Positions 7,220 to 16,026 of a DNA stretch of 64,000 nucleotides are shown here, in pieces. The DNA is taken from assembly GCA_965215565.1 (NCBI GenBank), contig CBDCDZ010000004.1, forward strand, positions 3,776,001-3,840,000, read 5' to 3'. Origin of the DNA: Trueperaceae bacterium (GTDB lineage Bacteria > Deinococcota > Deinococci > Deinococcales > Trueperaceae). Position numbers and translations under genes: made by a program. The notes below the pieces were generated by a model, which was not told the DNA's origin, ran no database searches, and saw only the letters and a program-made list of their open reading frames with translations. The stretch's first letter is position 1; each line of letters begins with the position of its first letter.

Positions 7220-7371
7220 ACCCTAGTCTACGGAGCCCCTGCGCCTCTATGTTAAGAAAGGCGACAAAATGTGAAATAGTTCAAACGGACGCTTTGCCCC
7301 GAGTTTCGCAGCCCCTTTGGTAGTCTTGTGTCTAGGGTGCTGGGGGGGTAAACTGTGATTCGTAGGTGCGT

Positions 7372-7445
7372 GGGCCCTTAGCTCAGTTGGTTAGAGCAGT
7401 CGACTCATAATCGATTGGTCGTGGGTTCAAGTCCCCCAGGGCCCA
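7372..7445 (+). tRNA. tRNA-Ile2(CAT), lysidine type (elongator Met not fully excluded)
   Basis: GGGCCCT/AGGGCCC acceptor stem and GTCGA-CTCATAA-TCGAT anticodon arm. The sequence resembles ileX-type tRNAs and lacks initiator features. Confidence 0.88.
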
Positions 7446-7523
7446 TCCCGAAAAAGCGCGTGACACACGCAAAAGGGGCGACCACCCCGAATGGGGTAGT
7501 CGCCCTAAATTCTGAATTACAGT

Positions 7524-7811
7524 TCAACTACAGCTACAAACTAGCGTCTGATACCCTTTACCCTTTTTACGCGCGAGGTTTCTGAGACGCCCCAACGTAT
7601 CCTCGTCCAGCCGCAGTGAAGTGCTCGTGCTCCGTTTGCAGACGGGGCGCGCGGGGAATTCCTGTGTAGCAGCTTCGTCCATAAGCTCCTCGCTTCAGAC
7701 GTGCGTGCTCCAAAAGTTATGCTCCTGACGTTCGTTCTTAAAAACGGGTAGGTCGTCCTTGCTATAAACGATGGTGAACCCGTCCTCGGTTTTTTCAGGT
7801 CGCTCTGCCAT
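7524..7811 (-). pseudogene. CopG/BrnA-like antitoxin pseudogene
   Basis: MAERPEK...HNFWSTHV*SEELMDE...STSLRLDEDTLGRLRNLARKKGKGYQTL. In-frame TGA at 7695-7697, and the C-terminus is truncated. Confidence 0.75.
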
Positions 7812-7869
7812 CGTAAAAGTATACACGGCGCTTAGAGGGCAGTTTAACAAGCAGATGCTAAACTGTCCC

Positions 7870-8085
7870 ATGCGCACTGTAAAAGCTCTCATCAACGAGC
7901 ACGGCAAAGTAGAACTTTTAGAGCCCCTCACGCTGAGTGAAGAGCGCCAAGCCCTCGTCACCATCCTCGACACGCCCACTCAAGAGCCGCGCCCCTTCGG
8001 GCTCTGCAAGGGCGAATTCAGCGTGCCAGATGACTTCGACGCGCCTCTACCTGACGACACTCTGGATGACTTCGAGCGTACGTGA
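7870..8085 (+). CDS. Orphan VapB/DUF2281-like antitoxin
   Basis: C-terminal PRPFGLCKGEFSVPDDFDAPLP motif typical of PIN-toxin antitoxins. TAAACT -10 box sits just upstream of ATG 7870. Confidence 0.7.
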   Translation: MRTVKALINEHGKVELLEPLTLSEERQALVTILDTPTQEPRPFGLCKGEFSVPDDFDAPLPDDTLDDFERT

Positions 8086-8093
8086 GGCTGCTT

Positions 8094-8498
8094 TTAGTTA
8101 CGCAAATTGATGACCTCAATATTTCCTCTGTACTTTGTCATGTCCCTGTCCACCGTGTAGAGCCGCGTCGCGCCCTTGCTCAGCACCGAGCTGAGGATGA
8201 GCGCGTCCGCCATGCTCAGTCCGTTTCCGTGCGCTAGACGAACCGCCTGGTCAACGATAGGGAGCGCCGTATCATCTAAGAACACCACGTCGTACAGCAG
8301 CGGTATATCGGTGGCTACCTGAAACGCGGCATTTTTGCTCAACATACCCTTCAAGCCGAGCTTCTTCAGCTCGTAAATGCAGACAACGCTTGTCACTAAC
8401 GCATGTTCGCCCTGCGCTGCCTCCTGGGTAAGCTGCCTAACAGTAGGATTCCGCAAGATGAATTCTACGAAGAACCCCGTATCACAGCCGATGGTCAC
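8094..8498 (-). CDS. vapC: PIN-domain toxin (VapC family)
   Basis: Acidic PIN residues in CDTG, YEL, MADALI and YTVDRD. 4-nt overlap with the upstream small gene. Confidence 0.85.
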   Translation of the reverse strand: MTIGCDTGFFVEFILRNPTVRQLTQEAAQGEHALVTSVVCIYELKKLGLKGMLSKNAAFQVATDIPLLYDVVFLDDTALPIVDQAVRLAHGNGLSMADALILSSVLSKGATRLYTVDRDMTKYRGNIEVINLRN

Positions 8499-8710
8499 GT
8501 GCGCTTCTGATCTGCTAGTCGCATACGTTCAAGCTCAGCCACGTACTCTTCGGATACCTCCGCGCCCTCGCTCGCCGCAACTATTCGCGAGAGTGCCGCC
8601 TGCCGCTGGCTTATTTTACTGCCTAAAAACTCCACGAAGTTCAGCACCTCTCGCTGACGCTCAGGGGGCAACTCGCGCAACCTCTCCAAAACTGCCTCTT
8701 CGACGCTCAT
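8495..8710 (-). CDS. DUF2281-like antitoxin
   Basis: LRELPPERQREVLNFVEFL motif. Translationally coupled to both neighbours. Confidence 0.8.
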   Translation of the reverse strand: MSVEEAVLERLRELPPERQREVLNFVEFLGSKISQRQAALSRIVAASEGAEVSEEYVAELERMRLADQKRT

Positions 8711-11700
8711 GACACACTCCCTTCTACAATCTTAACCTCTTCCTCCGTCAGCCCATAAAGCTCATACACCAGCGCGTCTATCCGCTCGCCCAGCGCCGCA
8801 ATCTCCCGCGTCACGCGCTCTAACTCCGAGCCCGCCGCACCCGCCTTCTGCTCATGCAGCCCCAACATCTCATCCACCATTTTTGTCATGCAGTCGTGCT
8901 GGTGTTTGTCGGTGGGGTTGGAGAGGTTGAGGGTGCGGATGGGGAGTTGTTCGACGTATTGGGTGAAGAAGCGGAGGTAGCCGCCGCGATAAACAGCGAA
9001 TGCGTTACTGTAGACGAACATCATAAGCGCCGAATTGATGAGGGCGAGAAGATATTTATCGTTGCTCGGAAAAAAGTAAGTGGTGTTGACGGAGTAAAAG
9101 TTACCGCAAGCATCTAGCGTAAAATTCCCTCGAGAACCGATGTCAGGGAAGATAATTTTAGATTTTTCAAAAAGGTTGTAGTAGTCGCAGGGTCTCAGCT
9201 CCCACCAAAACTGACCTTTATCCCCGCGCTTTCTTGCTCGTTCTTCAAAGGGTTTCAAATGTTCCGTGATTGCGGGGTATTGCTGCTGTAACCACGCCCA
9301 CTTATCGCTCGTCTCTCCTGAATTCGCGTTCGTCCAGCCATTTGGAAAGAGAATAAGGTGCTTATCGCTCTGCGGAGGCTGATACCTCTTCACATCCCGC
9401 CCCGCCAAAAACGGTTTAATCACCTCTTCGTTTTTCGGGTCTTCGGCGATGAGCTTGTCTCTGGTGGCTTGGTCGATGACGAAGGCTTCATTAAAACCTG
9501 TTTTGATACCGTAGTAGATTTTCCCGTCTACGTACCTCTCTAACGGCACGCCTGCTTTGTTTATCTTGTTCAAGACCTTTTGCGCGTCCTTGCTGGCTAA
9601 GGACCAGCCGCTACCGTCTAGCTCGGCTTGGGGTTGGGCGTAGGCACGCTGTTTGATGTAGCCGCGCAGGTCGTTGTAGGCTAACTCCTCCATCTTGACG
9701 ATGTTCACCTCTTGGCTGGGCTTGTCTCTGCTTACGAAGAGGATGCAGGGGTAGGTGGTGGCGCTTTCAAAGACGGGTAGGTCGCCGTAGTCGATGATGG
9801 TCATGAGGTCTTGCTTTTTGAGCCATTGGCGCAAGGGCTTGCCGTAGTTCGCCCGCATCCACTTGTTCGCGACGATGTAGGAGAAGACGCCTTTTCTCCT
9901 TAGCAGCTTGACGCCTAGCTCGATGAAGTAGACGAAGAGGTCTGCCGCGCCGTGATACGCCTCGTATTGGGCTTTGAGGTGCGGCTTGAGGTCGCCTAGC
10001 GCTTCTTGGCGGACGTAGGGCGGGTTGCCGATGACGATATCGAAGCCACCATCTCTGATAGCTCTGGGTTCAGCAAGGGGCTGAGCAAGGGGCTGAGCAA
10101 GGGGCTGAGTGGGGTGCTGAGCAAGGGGCTGAAGCCCCTTGTTGGTGGCGGTGGCGCTCTCTGGTGAGGTCAGCATGGATTCAACAAGGGGTTTCAACCC
10201 CTTGTTCTCAGGAAGGCGGTGCTTGTCTCTGTTGTGGGTCACGTAGTGCAAGGTGTTGTGAAGTTGCGCGTCCGTCGTGATCGCTTGCGCATGATACTTC
10301 TGCGCCCACAAATTGAGCGGGTCTGTAATGCCGCGTGCTTGCTTGAAGCGGTATGCGGATTTACCTTTGAGCTTGCGGACAATGTCGCTAAGCTCGTTAG
10401 GATCACACGTCAGGACCATATGAACGTGGTCTTGGCAGATGTTGTACGCCGACACCTTCAGGTCGTTTTCGGCGACGGTATCACGGATATAGCGTGTAAT
10501 CTCGACCTCTTGCGCTTCGTCTAGCAGAACGGGTTCACCGCGCTTGACACCGAACGTCACCATGCGTTCGCTCACGCGGCTGTTGTGCGCAACCCAAGTG
10601 ACATGATACGCCTGCAAAGTTTGTGGCGTGTGGATGTGCTGCCGGAAGACCTCACTAAAATGAACGCGGAAGTCGAAGTCCGCCTTTGCGCCGAAGTCTT
10701 GGGCAGACTTAAAGACGTTCGTGATGGTTTGGTCTATACGGGCGGAGAGGTCGCGCTTCTGCTTTTGGCGTGTCTCGCTGAAGTACGCCCGCTTGAGCTT
10801 TTCTAACTCGCGCATCTCGCTGTCGTCTAAGATGGCTCCTTCCAAACTCAGCACGGAGTTTCCTGCGACGATCTTATAGTCTAAGTTGGGCAGCGGCTCG
10901 ATGCCGTCGGCGTCGTCTTCGTCTACGACTAGCGAGAGCCAGAGGCGCAGCTTGGCGATGTCTACGGCGCTACGGTCGATGTCCACGCCGTAGATGCTCT
11001 CCTGGATGGCGCGGCGCTTGAGGGCGTAGGGGGTGCGCTCTTGTGGGTCTTTGAGGTGGGGCGTCAGCGCGGCGCGGGCGCGGACGATCTCGTTCATGAT
11101 GCCTACCGGAAACGCGCCGGAGCCGATGGCGGGGTCGCAGATTTTGATGTTGGCTAGAGCGTCGTCCACCTCTTGCGCGTGCTCGCGGACGCTTTCGGGC
11201 AGCCGGAAGGTGTACTTATCGGTCTCTTTGCCCTTTTTCATCACGCGGGTATCGTTTTCTACGGCTTGGTCGCCTAAGCGGATGAAGGTCTCTAGGTCCT
11301 CCTTGGGGACGCGCGGCTCGTAGACCTCTTCGGTGAGGGCGGCTTGGGTAGCTTGGGGTCGCCCAAAGAGGTCGTCCTGAACAGCTCCGACTATAGCAAA
11401 GGGCTTAAGCCCCTTGTTCAAGCGGGTGTCCAGAAAGCTCACTAGGCTCTCCTGACACATGTAGTGGACGATTTCGCGGGGCGTGTAGAACGCGCCTTTA
11501 GACTTGCGGTCTTCGACTTCCAAGAGGTTTTCAAAGACCTTACCGAGCATCTCGGGGTCTACGGCGACCTCTTTCTCCAAGGGTTCGTCTTCACGCACGG
11601 TGAAGTTGTACAAATCGAACACGTCCATGATGCGCTCGAAGGTCTTGTTTTGAAGCGGTATCGGCACGTTCACCCAGTCGTAGCCGCCGCTCGGCTCGAA

Positions 11701-12666
11701 GAGTCCGCCATTCAAAAAGGGGATTTTGCAGTCAAAGCGGCTGTAGAAGTTCTCGCTGCGCTCGAGGGCTAGGGCTTCGTAGAACAAGGGTTCTAAGATG
11801 TCGTCGAAAAAGTTGGTGTACGGCACGTAATCCTGCTTGTAGAGGCGGCGCAAGAAGTCCTTGGGTCCCGCGCCCCACGCTTCGCCGCGCTCCACGCCGA
11901 GCCAGCCCTTTTTCTGTAAGAAGTATAAGAAGACAACCTGACCCATGAGCCGTTTGGCGAAGTTGGCGGGGGTGAGGTCTTTGGTTTCGAACTCGGTCTG
12001 TATCTCTTGGTTGCGCTTTAAGAGAGCGTCTAGCTCCTCTTTGAGTTCCAGAAAGAGTGCTTTGTACTGCTTGAAGAACTCTGCCGTCACGCTCTCGATG
12101 TCGAAGGCGGCTTCTAAGGCGTTTAGCGTGACCGGAGCGTCCCTGCGCAGGATAGGTAAGAGCTGTTGCTGCGCGGTGTGGGTGCGCTCGCCTTCACCGA
12201 CCAGGAAGGAGTAGCGGCGAGCTGGGCTGAGTTCCTTGCTGGTTTTGCCCGTTTCGAAGTCGAGGCTGTACTCCATGCGCACCAGCGAGAAGCGCCAGTC
12301 GGGGGTGTCGTCGCTGTAGAAGGCGACCAGGGCGGCGTCGCGCTGAATGTCGCCGCGCCCCCGGTCTAAATACTTGGCGACGAAGTTGCGCTGAGTGGTG
12401 CGGGCGCGTTCTAGTTTGCTGTTGCCTTTGAGTTTCACCGCGAGGATGTCTATCTGGTTTTCCTCGGCGTCCGTGAATGAGCCGATGCGCTTGTACTGCG
12501 CGACGTGGTCTTTGTAGTCGTCCCAGATGTAGTTGCCGCTGAGGGCGCGGTCGTCCTTCTCGCCGAACTCCCTGAACACGTTGCGCACAAACGTCCTGAA
12601 ACGCGCCTCGTCGTAGGGCTGGTTGAAGGTCGCTTCGACTAATCTCTTTGCGGCTTGCTCGTTCAC
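8707..12666 (-). CDS. Eco57I/type IIG-like N6-adenine DNA methyltransferase with TaqI-like C-terminal specificity domain and an inserted HUH transposase domain
   Basis: PFLNGGLFE, GKVFENLL, GAFYTPRE, motif I DPAIGSGAF, motif IV GNPPY and C-terminal LVYELYGLTEEE. Confidence 0.9.
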   Translation of the reverse strand: MNEQAAKRLVEATFNQPYDEARFRTFVRNVFREFGEKDDRALSGNYIWDDYKDHVAQYKRIGSFTDAEENQIDILAVKLKGNSKLERARTTQRNFVAKYLDRGRGDIQRDAALVAFYSDDTPDWRFSLVRMEYSLDFETGKTSKELSPARRYSFLVGEGERTHTAQQQLLPILRRDAPVTLNALEAAFDIESVTAEFFKQYKALFLELKEELDALLKRNQEIQTEFETKDLTPANFAKRLMGQVVFLYFLQKKGWLGVERGEAWGAGPKDFLRRLYKQDYVPYTNFFDDILEPLFYEALALERSENFYSRFDCKIPFLNGGLFEPSGGYDWVNVPIPLQNKTFERIMDVFDLYNFTVREDEPLEKEVAVDPEMLGKVFENLLEVEDRKSKGAFYTPREIVHYMCQESLVSFLDTRLNKGLKPFAIVGAVQDDLFGRPQATQAALTEEVYEPRVPKEDLETFIRLGDQAVENDTRVMKKGKETDKYTFRLPESVREHAQEVDDALANIKICDPAIGSGAFPVGIMNEIVRARAALTPHLKDPQERTPYALKRRAIQESIYGVDIDRSAVDIAKLRLWLSLVVDEDDADGIEPLPNLDYKIVAGNSVLSLEGAILDDSEMRELEKLKRAYFSETRQKQKRDLSARIDQTITNVFKSAQDFGAKADFDFRVHFSEVFRQHIHTPQTLQAYHVTWVAHNSRVSERMVTFGVKRGEPVLLDEAQEVEITRYIRDTVAENDLKVSAYNICQDHVHMVLTCDPNELSDIVRKLKGKSAYRFKQARGITDPLNLWAQKYHAQAITTDAQLHNTLHYVTHNRDKHRLPENKGLKPLVESMLTSPESATATNKGLQPLAQHPTQPLAQPLAQPLAEPRAIRDGGFDIVIGNPPYVRQEALGDLKPHLKAQYEAYHGAADLFVYFIELGVKLLRRKGVFSYIVANKWMRANYGKPLRQWLKKQDLMTIIDYGDLPVFESATTYPCILFVSRDKPSQEVNIVKMEELAYNDLRGYIKQRAYAQPQAELDGSGWSLASKDAQKVLNKINKAGVPLERYVDGKIYYGIKTGFNEAFVIDQATRDKLIAEDPKNEEVIKPFLAGRDVKRYQPPQSDKHLILFPNGWTNANSGETSDKWAWLQQQYPAITEHLKPFEERARKRGDKGQFWWELRPCDYYNLFEKSKIIFPDIGSRGNFTLDACGNFYSVNTTYFFPSNDKYLLALINSALMMFVYSNAFAVYRGGYLRFFTQYVEQLPIRTLNLSNPTDKHQHDCMTKMVDEMLGLHEQKAGAAGSELERVTREIAALGERIDALVYELYGLTEEEVKIVEGSVS
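10054..10641 (-). mobile_element. In-frame Y1/HUH transposase domain (IS200/RAYT-like) inside the methyltransferase
   Basis: About 196 aa between FSEVFR and DGGFDIVIGNPPY. Contains YHVTW, HUH motif DHVHMV (10420-10428), LKGKSA, LWAQKY and catalytic-Tyr helix LHYVTHNRDKH. Confidence 0.85.
10072..10206. repeat. Two 24-bp REP-like palindromes plus tandem 12-bp half-sites
   Basis: AACAAGGGGTTTCAACCCCTTGTT (10183-10206), AGCAAGGGGCTGAAGCCCCTTGTT (10120-10143) and AGCAAGGGGCTG x3 (10072-10107). Confidence 0.92.
11395..11418. repeat. REP-like palindrome inside the methyltransferase ORF
   Basis: AGCAAAGGGCTTAAGCCCCTTGTT, read as NKGLKPFA. Confidence 0.88.
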
Positions 12667-12710: not shown

Positions 12711-12746
12711 AGCAAGGGGCTTAAGCCCCTTGTTGAGCCCCTTGTT
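12711..12746. repeat. Intergenic REP-like palindrome plus half-site
   Basis: AGCAAGGGGCTTAAGCCCCTTGTT-GAGCCCCTTGTT between the helicase and methyltransferase genes. Confidence 0.9.
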
Positions 12747-12753
12747 ACCTTGA

Positions 12754-15700
12754 CTACTCATTACCAACTAGATACTCAGACAGGATGACCTCACGCGGCA
12801 CGCTCTCGGTGTCGTCCTGGGCGGTTCTCACAAACGTGCTTTCGCCGATGTGCTGCTTCAACACGTTTAGGATAGTGAGCGGTTGATAGCCCGCTGCTTT
12901 GAGGTCGGACATGACGGTCTTGGTGGTGTTTTTGGCGACCGTGCCCGCCTCTAACGCCTGCCGCACCTCACCCAAATAGACTTCGTCGTCGTCGGTGAAG
13001 CCCTTGAAGCGGGTCACTTCTCGAGACTTCAACATGGTTCTCAGCTTGTTTTCGCTCGAGTGTCCCCCGCCACCTTTAGCGCCGCTCTTGGGCTCGGGCA
13101 AATCTTCGGTGAGCGTCAGCCGAAACGCATCGTCGTTCTTCGCTAAGAGGTCGTAGTACGCGGGGGGTATTTTGCGTCTCGGTTCGTCCGGCTTACACGC
13201 GAACAGCTCGGCAGCTTGGAAAAACTCGAGTTCGTAGTCTGACGCGCCGTCGCTCAGGAAGAACTTCTTGAGCCTGCCGCGCCGGAAAAAGGTGATGAGG
13301 GCGTCTCTATCTGCGCCCTCGACACCTAGAGGTCGATTAGGGAGTCGCTTTGCGCTCCGCGCTTTTTTAGGGAGGCGCTTGACCCGCTCGAACAGCTCGG
13401 GCTCCTTGTCGCGGACGTCCCTTAAAAGCTGCAAATACTGCAACTCGGAGCGCTCGTCCTCTTCCTGCTCTAAGCTCTCCTTGCTCGTTAGCGTCTGGTA
13501 GAGCCTATCGCCAAAGAGTGCGTGCGTGGTCACCTCTTCGTCATCGGTGAGGTATTTGGCGTCTTCGCCCAGCGTGTCGTGAAAGGCTTGAATCTTCGCC
13601 TTGATGTTGCCCTCTAAGCCTAGGTGCGCGTCGCTTTGGTCGGTAGGAAAGAAGTTGAAGACGTAAGCGGTCTCATGCGCCGCGCCGACGCGGTTGATGC
13701 GCCCGACGCGCTGCAACACGCGGGTGGGGTTCCAGGGCAGGTCGTAGTTGATAACGACGTTCGAGCGGTGTAGGTTGATACCTTCAGCGAGCACGTCGGT
13801 AGTTACAAGCACGCGGATGTCGTCTTTTTGCTCGCGTTGGTTCGGGTCGAAATTCGCTTTGATGAGGTCTCTAGCCACCGTAACGCCATGACTCACCCCT
13901 CTATGAATACCGCCCTGACTCGCGTAGAAGAACGCTTTGCCGGGCATCGCCTCTTCCAGGTGCGTGTAGAGGTATTCACCCGTTTCCTTCGACTCGGTGA
14001 AGACGATGAGCTTTTGCCCTTTGAGAAGAGGGTGGTGCGTGACCTCATGAAGGAATTGCTCCAACTTGGGGTCTGTCTCGACACGCTGCCACATCCGCTC
14101 GATGGAGCGCAGCACGAGGAGGTCGTTGTTGAGGCTCACCAGGAAGTCATCCTCGAAGTCGCCCGCCGCGTAACTCTGCACCTCGCCGTGCTCAGCCAGC
14201 TCGATAAGCCGCGCCTCGTCGTCGCTCTCCAAGAGGTCATACACATCAAACTTCTTGCTGATATAGACCGCGCCGCTCCGAAACATGCCGATGAAGCGCT
14301 CGTAAGACTCGGTAAAGCGCCGCACGGTCTTCTTGAAGGCGTAGAAACTGCTCTCTAAGCGCTTGACCAAAACGCCTTTCATGAAGCCCCGAACGTTATG
14401 CTGCGACTGCTGCTCCAAAACGCCGACTTCGTGCTTGAGGTAGAGGAGCGGCGCGTAGCGGGCGTACTGAAACTCTTTGAGGAGTGCGATGGTGTCGTCG
14501 AAGACCTGTCCGGTCGCCTCGTCAAACTGATAGACGATGCGCTCGGGCGCAGCCAATTCGGGGAAGCTCAGTCCTTGGCCTTCCAAGTCCTCGCTGAAGT
14601 AATTTTTGATCTCGGTGCGCGTTCGCCTCACCATGACGTGGTTCAAAACTTTGCTTCTCACCTGCGCGGACGCTTCATTGAGCGCCTGAATGTAGACTGG
14701 GTCGGACCTGTCCCCGTCCACGCTTTTACGTGTCGCCTCGAGCGCCAGCCGCAATTTGTCGAAGAAGCTCTGCAAGTTCTTCACGCCGGGGATGCTGCTC
14801 TTTTTGGCGGGTTGAAAAAGTTTAAGGAGCGCTAGAATGTCCCCCAACTTGTTGTTGAGGGGCGTTGCTGAGACTAAGATCACCTTTTTGCCCGCGCATA
14901 TCTTGTGCAGGGTCTCAAAGGACTGCGTCGCTTCGTTGCGGAAGCGGTGGGCTTCGTCGATAAGGACATAGTCGTACCTGGCCGCGCCCTCTCTAAGCAC
15001 GCGGTCTATCTGCCCTAGGGACTCGATACGGCACTGCGGCACGCCGAACTCGAAGAGGGTCGCCCGCCAATAGTCGGCCAAGACTGGGGGGCAGATGATG
15101 AGCTTGCGTCCGGGGAGTTGCTGCAACAAGAGCGCGGAAATAAAGGTTTTGCCCAAGCCCACCACATCGGCTAAGAAAACGCCGTTATACGCCTCGAGTA
15201 TCTTCTTCGCGGAGAGCACCGCCTGACGCTGATAAGCGAGTTCCATGAACCCTTCAGGCAGGTAAAAGTCAACGTCCTGGTCGATGTTGATGTCTTCTTT
15301 GAAATATTCGTATAAGAACTTGAGATAGATACCAAAGGGTGTAACGTTGTCGCTGAGCCAAGTCTTTGTTCTGAGCGTGTCGATGTAGGCTTCGGAGATG
15401 TCCACGCTTTCAGCCCATAGCTCTTCAAATTTGGCGAGGGCGTATTCGACATCTGGCGCGTCTTTAAGTTCGACATTGAATTCGCGCTGGGCGACGAGCC
15501 CGTTTTCAGAGAAGTTGCTCGAGCCCGTAATGACCCGTCCGAAGTCGCGGTCGTCCTCCCCAAAGCGGCTGATGTAGACCTTGGCGTGCATGTTTCGGTC
15601 CCGAAAAGCTCGCAGTTCCAACTTGCCTGACTGGATGAATTCGATGAACTTCCTTGCCGAAATCTCCATGTCCAGGTTGTCAGCGGACGCTTCCATCTCG

Positions 15701-16026
15701 CGCACCAGCGCGTCACTAAACTCAGCTTGGACCTGGTGATGAGAGGCGAAACCAAGCTCGCCTTGCTGAACCCCTCTTTGGGCGTCAAGTCGGGCGGTCT
15801 CTAACAGCGTGAAGGCGTTGCGGTCTACCGACAAACCCACCAAGATGCGCACCTTATCAACAGTCTCCAGGGACTCGTAAAGCCTACGAAAGCCGCTCGT
15901 CCTGAAATAGCCCACCAGTACGTCGAAGTACTGAACGTCGCGCAGCGTCCTTACGAAGCGGTCGTAGAGCGTCTCGTCCGGCTCGTTGGTGAAGAACTTT
16001 AGATCGTTTCGCGGTATCGTCTTCAC
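12754..16026 (-). CDS. PLD-nuclease/SNF2-like helicase fusion (restriction partner)
   Basis: PLD motif MHAKVY...GSSNFS, Walker A ADVVGLGKT, DEAH, SATP, EGINL and QRVGRINR. Confidence 0.9.
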   Translation of the reverse strand: MKTIPRNDLKFFTNEPDETLYDRFVRTLRDVQYFDVLVGYFRTSGFRRLYESLETVDKVRILVGLSVDRNAFTLLETARLDAQRGVQQGELGFASHHQVQAEFSDALVREMEASADNLDMEISARKFIEFIQSGKLELRAFRDRNMHAKVYISRFGEDDRDFGRVITGSSNFSENGLVAQREFNVELKDAPDVEYALAKFEELWAESVDISEAYIDTLRTKTWLSDNVTPFGIYLKFLYEYFKEDINIDQDVDFYLPEGFMELAYQRQAVLSAKKILEAYNGVFLADVVGLGKTFISALLLQQLPGRKLIICPPVLADYWRATLFEFGVPQCRIESLGQIDRVLREGAARYDYVLIDEAHRFRNEATQSFETLHKICAGKKVILVSATPLNNKLGDILALLKLFQPAKKSSIPGVKNLQSFFDKLRLALEATRKSVDGDRSDPVYIQALNEASAQVRSKVLNHVMVRRTRTEIKNYFSEDLEGQGLSFPELAAPERIVYQFDEATGQVFDDTIALLKEFQYARYAPLLYLKHEVGVLEQQSQHNVRGFMKGVLVKRLESSFYAFKKTVRRFTESYERFIGMFRSGAVYISKKFDVYDLLESDDEARLIELAEHGEVQSYAAGDFEDDFLVSLNNDLLVLRSIERMWQRVETDPKLEQFLHEVTHHPLLKGQKLIVFTESKETGEYLYTHLEEAMPGKAFFYASQGGIHRGVSHGVTVARDLIKANFDPNQREQKDDIRVLVTTDVLAEGINLHRSNVVINYDLPWNPTRVLQRVGRINRVGAAHETAYVFNFFPTDQSDAHLGLEGNIKAKIQAFHDTLGEDAKYLTDDEEVTTHALFGDRLYQTLTSKESLEQEEDERSELQYLQLLRDVRDKEPELFERVKRLPKKARSAKRLPNRPLGVEGADRDALITFFRRGRLKKFFLSDGASDYELEFFQAAELFACKPDEPRRKIPPAYYDLLAKNDDAFRLTLTEDLPEPKSGAKGGGGHSSENKLRTMLKSREVTRFKGFTDDDEVYLGEVRQALEAGTVAKNTTKTVMSDLKAAGYQPLTILNVLKQHIGESTFVRTAQDDTESVPREVILSEYLVGNE

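Follow-up and report, generated by a model that had tools for sequence, protein, structure and literature searches.

Results

A restriction-modification gene with an in-frame Y1/HUH domain

The window considered here, a 64,000-nucleotide stretch of the genome of a Trueperaceae bacterium (contig CBDCDZ010000004.1, positions 3,776,001 to 3,840,000), contains a Type IIG-like restriction-modification (RM) gene that carries a Y1/HUH nuclease domain in frame, together with copies of a hairpin resembling a repetitive extragenic palindrome (REP) (Table 1). The encoded protein comprises an N-terminal domain, a gamma-class N6-adenine methyltransferase and a TaqI-like specificity domain, in that order, and is matched by the Pfam families Eco57I, N6_Mtase, TaqI_C and Y1_Tnp. 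Intact methyltransferase motifs I and IV are found together with the specificity domain in one chain, as is characteristic of Type IIG enzymes. In the N-terminal domain, D73 is conserved in 98% of 95 aligned rows, and neither a conserved E-x-K nor a clear D-ExK nuclease motif was seen; the product of the neighboring phospholipase D (PLD)-nuclease/Snf2 helicase gene may provide restriction activity in place of this domain.

Alignment with insert-free homologs defined both junctions of the insert, which begins with RQH and ends with AIRD. At this site, insert-free relatives mostly contain two or three residues (e.g., FSEVF-HEK-GGFD), or seven in the case of genome G005, as compared to 198 here. 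An original prediction, made from the letters of the DNA alone, had described some 196 residues separating normally adjacent segments with neither stop codon nor frameshift, next to motif IV and devoid of intein termini. The single open frame and the position of the Y1 domain immediately before motif IV bear this out, as does the lack of any Pfam intein family match to the 1319-residue protein at E values up to 0.1 and of intein termini at the ends of the insert.

The predicted assignment of the insert to the Y1/HUH group likewise held, with Y1_Tnp (PF01797) scoring 49.4 bits in the whole protein (residues 707-811) and 53.5 bits with the insert alone, against a cut-off of 23, and with the motifs YHVTW, DHVH (HUH), WAQKY and LHYVTHNRDKH all being present, including the catalytic residues H747, H749 and Y808. 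Across 75 aligned rows, H, H, K, Y, N and H are invariant, the family consensus around the tyrosine being YIxxNRxKH, while the HUH pair is retained in 111 and the tyrosine in 112 of 113 fused rows. Of the more specific proposal, that the domain is of the IS200/IS605 TnpA or RAYT type, membership in the Y1 superfamily stands and the fit to either curated model does not, since the insert scored 58.2 bits with the RAYT model NF047646 (cut-off 80) and 50.9 bits with the IS200 model NF033573 (cut-off 55). The best sequence matches of the insert in the PDB are IS200/IS605 TnpA proteins (2XM3 and 2VHG; E 6e-7).

In a predicted structure of residues 490-1060 (77 rows; mean predicted local distance difference test (pLDDT) score, 85), both the methylase and the Y1 folds are intact, with scores below 50 being restricted to a short linker and residues 840-871. 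The methylase fold in this model aligns across the insert to CamA (7lni; Z 25.2, 283 residues, root-mean-square deviation 2.9); alignments of the insert were obtained with ISHp608 TnpA (2vhg; Z 11.9) and TnpA-REP (4er8; Z 11.4). A Foldseek search with the fused model returned methylases only as its top 50 matches. When the insert was modeled by itself (pLDDT 96), the three top folds were 2vhg (Z 11.7), 2ec2 (10.9) and 4er8 (9.7); in this single-chain model, the 4er8 alignment spans residues 7-155 and so includes the tyrosine helix, whereas those with 2vhg and 2ec2 end at residue 125. As TnpA-REP is described as a monomer and IS200-type TnpA as a helix-swapped dimer (PMC3479197), a self-contained active site in the modeled Y1 domain is plausible.

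Pairwise comparisons of Y1 core coding sequences indicate that the insert is under strong purifying selection. The ratio of nonsynonymous to synonymous substitution rates (dN/dS) is 0.08 relative to L067 (dS 1.8, near saturation), 0.015-0.074 in five unsaturated fused-gene pairs among L025, L068, L069 and L070, and 0.28 for L075/L077, such that the cleanest pairs fall between 0.015 and 0.08.

The fusion is not a product of assembly. Unitigs from raw reads, namely X1 (9841-11475) and X2 (9841-10963), cross both insert junctions with no differences, these representing two runs of one sample that is possibly the source of the assembly itself. In record 21 of X3, a contig from a separate study, approximately 716 nt are found where an empty allele would have approximately 220, leaving room for an insert of similar size, and 52 independent database proteins show the same layout. 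Short repeats at the 3' side of the insert are what might have suggested an artefact; the probability of an assembly chimera, the condition that the original prediction named as its refutation, or of an annotation artefact is negligible.

Table 1. Features of the RM locus, in coordinates of the window.
Feature	Position	Strand	Remarks
Type IIG-like RM gene	8707..12666	-	Single open reading frame (ORF), 1319 aa; PADLOC REase_MTase_IIG 2.2e-269
Methyltransferase motif I (DPAIGSG)	11116..11136	-	Intact
Methyltransferase motif IV (NPPY)	10015..10026	-	Intact
In-frame insert	10054..10641	-	aa 676-871; between FSEVF (aa 670-674) and GGFDIVIGNPPY (aa 873-884)
Folded Y1/HUH core	10153..10614	-	aa ~685-838; pLDDT 96; conserved residues
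HUH H747/H749 (DHVH)	10420-10431	-	Within Y1 core; W787 also present
Catalytic Y808	10243-10245	-	Within Y1 core
Hairpin CAAGGGGTTGAAACCCCTTG	10185..10204	.	NKGLKPLV in last Y1 helix; commonest loop variant in the genome (65/99); z -4.05, 0/200 shuffles
Disordered tail (aa 840-871)	10060..10143	.	Hairpin 10122-10141 (C-G variant, NKGLQPLA), then 12-nt half-hairpin repeats (AQPL x3); pLDDT <50
Third hairpin patch	11380..11418	.	Hairpin 11397-11416, one mismatch; in frame, NKGLKPF
Fourth hairpin and half-copies	12713..12746	.	In gap between helicase gene and methylase gene
Swappable module	8950..10854	-	aa ~605-1240: helical connector, Y1 insert, motifs IV-VIII, specificity domain; bounded by VAGNS and QLPIRT
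PLD-nuclease/Snf2 helicase gene	12754..16026	-	HKD+Snf2 1e-55; likely defence-locus partner
Island end	7371..8710	.	tRNA-Met 7371-7448, small antitoxin-like ORFs, PIN toxin 8094-8498, its partner 8495-8710

Fused and free-standing relatives

A search for fused relatives limited to proteins of 725-2309 residues yielded 52 matches among 1226 candidates, all containing PF01797 together with methylase domains (query residues 670-880). The insertion site is identical in 50 of these, directly before GGFD..NPP, with the remaining two ending short of motif IV. PF01797 was found in three of the 120 best matches to the upstream backbone. In a library clustered at 50% identity, 476 clusters matched the Y1 core at E 0.001, the best 150 of which correspond to 89 short proteins without RM motifs, 57 proteins with such motifs and four others (two Eco57I-type, one Type ISP and one ending in GGFD); among these 150 family representatives, no fusion partner other than RM enzymes was found.

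About half of the Y1 family is free-standing. One such form (L020) lies between two NADH-dehydrogenase-like genes with one hairpin on each side, and a second (L073) is similarly flanked by hairpins. In a FastTree phylogeny of 200 Y1 cores (113 fused and 87 short, some of the latter possibly being fragments; 148 columns), the fused/short label changes 27 times, at least nine of these changes being forced by starred branches, as compared to 65 in shuffles. The Y1 family was detected in three of 128 genomes of the bacterial family, and in the present genome the fused domain is the sole PF01797 match, in a single copy. No match was found among PLSDB plasmids at 1e-10, and a search of viral contigs gave no locus.

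P0203, P0218, P0259 and P0272 represent short proteins in which the Y1 domain is directly followed by an RM-like C-terminal tail, possibly reflecting deletion, together with a single case of Y1 joined to the specificity domain of a Type ISP enzyme. In addition, G014 contains, at L094, an ordinary RAYT resembling subclass 2.4 (NHLH, WQ, YIQNNP), separate from the fused Y1 of the same genome.

Hairpins at the RM locus

The REP-like palindrome CAAGGGGTTGAAACCCCTTG is present in four copies at the RM locus (10185, 10122, 11397 and 12713), two of which lie in the insert, one upstream within the same gene and one before the gene. No other 2.7-kb stretch of the genome contains four copies, and, of the four C-G variants of the hairpin in the genome, three lie within 2.6 kb of the Y1 domain. 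No hairpins were detected in 14 kb at each of the insert-free RM loci L021 and L060, nor at either border of the module described below. The copy at 11397 folds weakly on its own (z -1.45); the patch that contains it (hairpin at residues 418-429) is a same-length replacement of about 12 codons, the 10 closest compared backbones having kept the ancestral form. Whereas the Y1 insert had been recognized in the original prediction, the cognate hairpins and the swappable module did not figure in that account of the locus.

The hairpin is found in all three family genomes with this Y1 and in 13 of the 128 overall, kin among these not being independent. In G014, all eight hairpins share the TTTAAA loop that is also found inside the fused Y1 of that genome. 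Since a 5' GTAG/GTGG foot accompanies only five of the 99 copies in the present genome, the hairpin is an atypical REP. A solo hairpin at G000:C4:3942095, orthologous to that at L099, is of the C-G variant here, a variant not seen elsewhere than at the RM locus, and of the T-A variant in G001, reflecting either a compensatory change or conversion.

Most dispersed hairpins lie in an IS1-related element

Chromosome-wide, the hairpin is found 99 times (at most two mismatches), whereas the reversed and the complemented control each gave no copies. Some 80 of these hairpins lie inside a 116-bp element with GGTAGTGG ends (e.g., G000:C4 2062147-2062262), copies of which show nearest-neighbor identities of 68-88%. 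Target duplications of 8-9 bp flank 15 of the 36 element copies with both ends, as opposed to none of 1260 control pairings, and three IS1 copies (near G000:C4 1550513, 2115309 and 3439056) present the ends of the element and an 8-bp duplication. These elements are IS1 miniature inverted-repeat transposable elements (MITEs) that hold the hairpin as mid-element cargo, i.e., a DDE element that amplifies a REP-like hairpin. Both congeners contain the MITEs and 33-35 hairpins, yet no PF01797 match. Of 20 congener MITE sites, 16 have syntenic flanks, five of these being common to the present genome and 11 not; the MITE was not found in G005 or G018.

Given that most hairpins were spread by the IS1 MITE, their high copy number is no evidence for the fused enzyme. 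As such, the fused Y1 was rejected as the spreader of the 99 hairpins, in light of the MITE ends and their presence on the IS1 copies, the target duplications, the low nearest-neighbor identities and the congeners that carry the element without PF01797. Another dispersed repeat, approximately 111 bp in length (L059 8437-8547), has more than 50 matches in G000:C4, one copy lying inside an IS1 MITE at C4:1041300.

Exchange of the module that carries the insert

Protein P0055 differs from the protein considered here at 28 positions over residues 1-604, 14 of which fall within residues 415-436, with 97-99% identity elsewhere in this region. Over residues 605-1250, by contrast, identity falls to 26-43% and Y1 is absent, before returning to 93% at the C-terminal end. 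P0055 also lacks the hairpin at residues 418-429, the patch of differences at 415-436 being the 11397 hairpin itself. G005 and P0003, on the other hand, share the central module (67-86% identity over residues 600-1160 outside the insert), with that of G005 being empty and that of P0003 filled. These comparisons show that residues ~605-1240 are exchanged as one block, at the conserved VAGNS and QLPIRT sequences, and that a given type of module may occur with or without the insert. Because near-identical P0055 has a Y1-less module and no upstream hairpin, Y1 rides in the swappable module and the hairpin is recent. The hairpin at residues 415-436, young and seen only in the Y1-bearing allele, is the best hint of recent Y1 activity.

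In a backbone tree of five filled and 35 empty alleles (the parsed ones of P0055-P0090 plus G005, drawn from 117 empty matches), the filled alleles require five changes, no fewer than in shuffles, and their placement in one clade was rejected (p-AU, from the approximately unbiased test, 1.7e-62; 2.6e-7 for the four closest). In some pairs whose upstream identity reaches 89-95%, the inserts are only 36-46% alike. Among pairs with at least 90% upstream identity, which are not independent of each other, identity after NPPY was below 50% in 437 of 465 empty-allele pairs, as compared to 37 of 93 filled pairs. Since empty alleles as a rule swap the sequence that follows NPPY, and filled alleles do so no more often, swapping does not require Y1, and a role for Y1 as the driver of specificity swapping is unsupported.

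A second Type IIG-like gene in this genome (L060; G000:C4:1473292-1477338) has a different N-terminal half and neither Y1 nor hairpin. It shares the region from motif IV onward (72% nucleotide identity across 660 nt, rising to 84% at the 3' end) and is a possible in-genome swap partner.

Surroundings of the RM gene

The same helicase-methylase pair occurs in G005 with neither insert nor hairpins, and in P0003 a Snf2 helicase is fused to the methylase instead of being encoded by a separate PLD-nuclease/Snf2 gene. At the other end, the constant 3'-terminal part of the RM gene (QLPIRT onward; window 7844-8945) recurs in G001 (L059 9486-10545) as orphan 77-residue fragments alternating with toxin-antitoxin-like genes, and the X3 and X4 contigs join 8932 to 7844 in a similar manner. 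Such an arrangement is suggestive of a cassette array, with integration taking place at the 3' end of the RM gene.

Discussion

The explanation that we favor, and consider somewhat probable, is that the insert is an active, semi-selfish RAYT-like Y1/HUH element lodged in a tolerant surface loop before motif IV. It builds on the single frame, the modeled folds, both intact, the catalytic residues, purifying selection, the hairpins at the locus, module exchange and the hairpin-flanked free-standing forms. The original prediction had offered either a selfish element in a neutral site or a domesticated nuclease; the former is preferred, given the presence of Y1 in three of the 120 closest backbones, the 98%-identical allele without it and the free-standing, hairpin-flanked forms. 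Y1 would be translated with the methylase and remain unspliced as an extra domain, presumably active as a monomer, as is E. coli TnpA-REP. By analogy to the chemistry of its family, it would bind the hairpin in single-stranded DNA, nick it via a phosphotyrosine and rejoin the ends. Occasionally, a hairpin would be planted nearby, with only frame-preserving copies surviving within the gene, as the 11397 patch and the 12-nt repeats suggest. Y1 would spread mainly as a passenger of RM module swaps, occurring by homologous recombination at GNS, motif IV and QLPIR, and through island transfer, as pointed to by the module exchange and by the location of the locus beside tRNA-Met; judging from the free-standing forms, it would rarely move by itself. 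The RM gene would supply expression, shelter from deletion and transport, with the host enzyme tolerating Y1 and having no need of it.

Several observations weigh against such an element. Besides the residence of most hairpins in the IS1 MITE, 10 of the 13 hairpin-bearing family genomes, including both congeners, were found to be without such a Y1, and the hairpins therefore speak of past, not present, activity. The hairpin at residues 418-429 could have come from another allele through host recombination. Insert identity tracks upstream segments (rho 0.50 and 0.44) and not those downstream (-0.06 and 0.0) in those fused proteins, 67 of 113, that contain every segment, so that the insert mostly stays in place. 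In the clade L078-L086, dN/dS is 0.5-1.0 in many pairs, although these values are confounded by repeat expansions in the measured segment. Finally, some of the short proteins may be remnants of broken fusions, and every long relative among the best 150 is an RM gene, which is also compatible with a function in the RM system.

This last point leads to the main competing explanation, that Y1 is a domesticated accessory nuclease that adds single-strand or hairpin nicking or trapping to the enzyme, or serves the host through the hairpins, and is kept for its benefit. All 61 long or RM-motif-bearing members of the best 150 are RM-type, nearly all with the insert at one site, purifying selection is strong, there is one copy per genome and the methylase N-terminal domain, with its conserved D73, offers no clear D-ExK nuclease motif; moreover, it has been argued that RAYTs must benefit their hosts (Bertels 2017; PMC5581495). 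Against this, the domain is rare and patchy, being present in three of 120 closest backbones and three of 128 family genomes, and an allele 98% identical lacks it. As 89 of the 150 representatives are short, non-RM proteins, and as the hairpins lie in the host's own DNA and the Y1 tail has been overwritten by repeats, domestication is considered unlikely.

It is highly improbable that Y1 instead acts as an engine of specificity swapping, nicking at hairpins and so triggering exchange of the motif IV/specificity module. Although Y1 is found between two breakpoints (residue ~604 and motif IV) and the sequences after NPPY are unrelated in 34 of the 86 pairs whose inserts are near-identical, empty alleles swap as a rule (437/465 as compared to 37/93 pairs), neither module border has a hairpin and specificity domains are known to recombine at conserved flanks in the absence of such an enzyme (PMC3077401). 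Still less probable is an inert passenger, an old insertion retained since misfolding or a frameshift would kill the methylase. In its favor, the domain scores below both the RAYT (58.2/80) and IS200 (50.9/55) cut-offs, constraint on folding alone lowers dN/dS and hairpin families persist without an enzyme, but nearly all fused rows, at identities of 30-60%, retain both catalytic histidines and the tyrosine, and the recent hairpin patch is seen only in the filled allele.

Taking the favored reading of an active, semi-selfish element further, we tentatively propose, as a possibility that is more doubtful than not, that the Y1 subfamily with the HNSRxSxRM motif is a splice-free, protein-level parasite of RM methylases, combining an active single-stranded DNA nuclease, hairpin-directed homing into the loop before motif IV, same-length writing of hairpins and transport by RM shuffling. 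Were this true, it would represent a third route to persistence for RAYT-like enzymes, beside transposition and domestication, and the first case of an HUH enzyme acting as the analogue of an intein or homing endonuclease. Residence in the swapped part of an anti-phage methylase gene would be a way to persist and spread without breaking the host gene. The choice between selfish and useful is directly testable, since Y1 occupies a fixed site in a defence enzyme, nearly isogenic alleles with and without it occur naturally, its hairpin is defined and its catalytic residues are three in number. That the loop before motif IV of a gamma-class methylase accepts a whole 150-residue domain is relevant to the engineering of methylase fusions, as well as to annotation, with database names of these fusion proteins ranging from 'RayT' to 'N-6 DNA methylase'.

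No description of a Y1-RM methylase fusion was found in the literature searched, most subscription papers lying outside its scope, while automated annotations already mark both domains on such proteins. In the classification of Quentin (2018; PMC6006769), long fusion proteins were discarded and the main text contains neither 'methyl' nor 'restriction', although its supplements may list fusions; there, in-frame REPs are described only for genes of subclass 2.4 (and some of 2.7/2.8). The available text of Bertels (2017; PMC5581495) contains neither 'fusion' nor 'fused', and treats the retention of RAYTs as an open question, self-copying being rare and host benefit unproven. New at this locus are an empty allele that is nearly isogenic and reveals the exact borders of the module, and the recent in-gene hairpin, along with the controls that remove the genome-wide-spread and swap-driver readings.

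Of known systems, RAYT/TnpA-REP (the REPtron; 4ER8; TnpA-Y1 class 2 in the main text of Quentin 2018, PMC6006769) shares with the fused domain the Y1/HUH fold, single copy, a conserved W and Y-x-x-x-N, as well as cognate palindromes both at the gene and dispersed, here numbering four at the locus and 99 genome-wide. RAYTs of subclass 2.4 also contain in-frame hairpins within the gene. Judging from the single-chain model, the tyrosine helix of the fused domain may lie in the cis position. The fused Y1 differs from the RAYTs described there in being nested in another enzyme, in having Y-VTHNR rather than Y-x-x-x-NP and its own N-terminal HNSRxSxRM motif, and in the short, perfect hairpin with a GTAG/GTGG foot in 5/99 copies; it also scores below the NF047646 cut-off. 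With IS200/IS605 TnpA (subclass 1.1; 2XM3 and 2VHG), it shares the DHVH motif, a hairpin-flanked free-standing form and the best PDB sequence matches, yet it is fused, lacks Y-x-x-x-Q (having YVTHN), is present in one copy rather than several, has no tnpB seen adjacent and falls below NF033573. The host gene resembles Type IIG/Eco57I-like RM systems with exchangeable specificity domains, for which precedent is found in the work of Furuta (2011; PMC3077401), in its gamma-class methylase, TaqI-like domain and module swaps at conserved flanks. As compared to the swaps described there, the present module carries a whole foreign nuclease domain, the swap points (GNS and motif IV) lie inside the methylase fold and the N-terminal nuclease motif is unclear.

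The Y1 insert also differs from inteins, as it has neither splicing domain nor termini and belongs to a family of single-strand HUH chemistry. Nonetheless, inteins and in-frame homing endonucleases, in which a selfish nuclease lies beside a conserved catalytic motif in a patchwork of filled and empty alleles, offer a pattern that the Y1 insert resembles.

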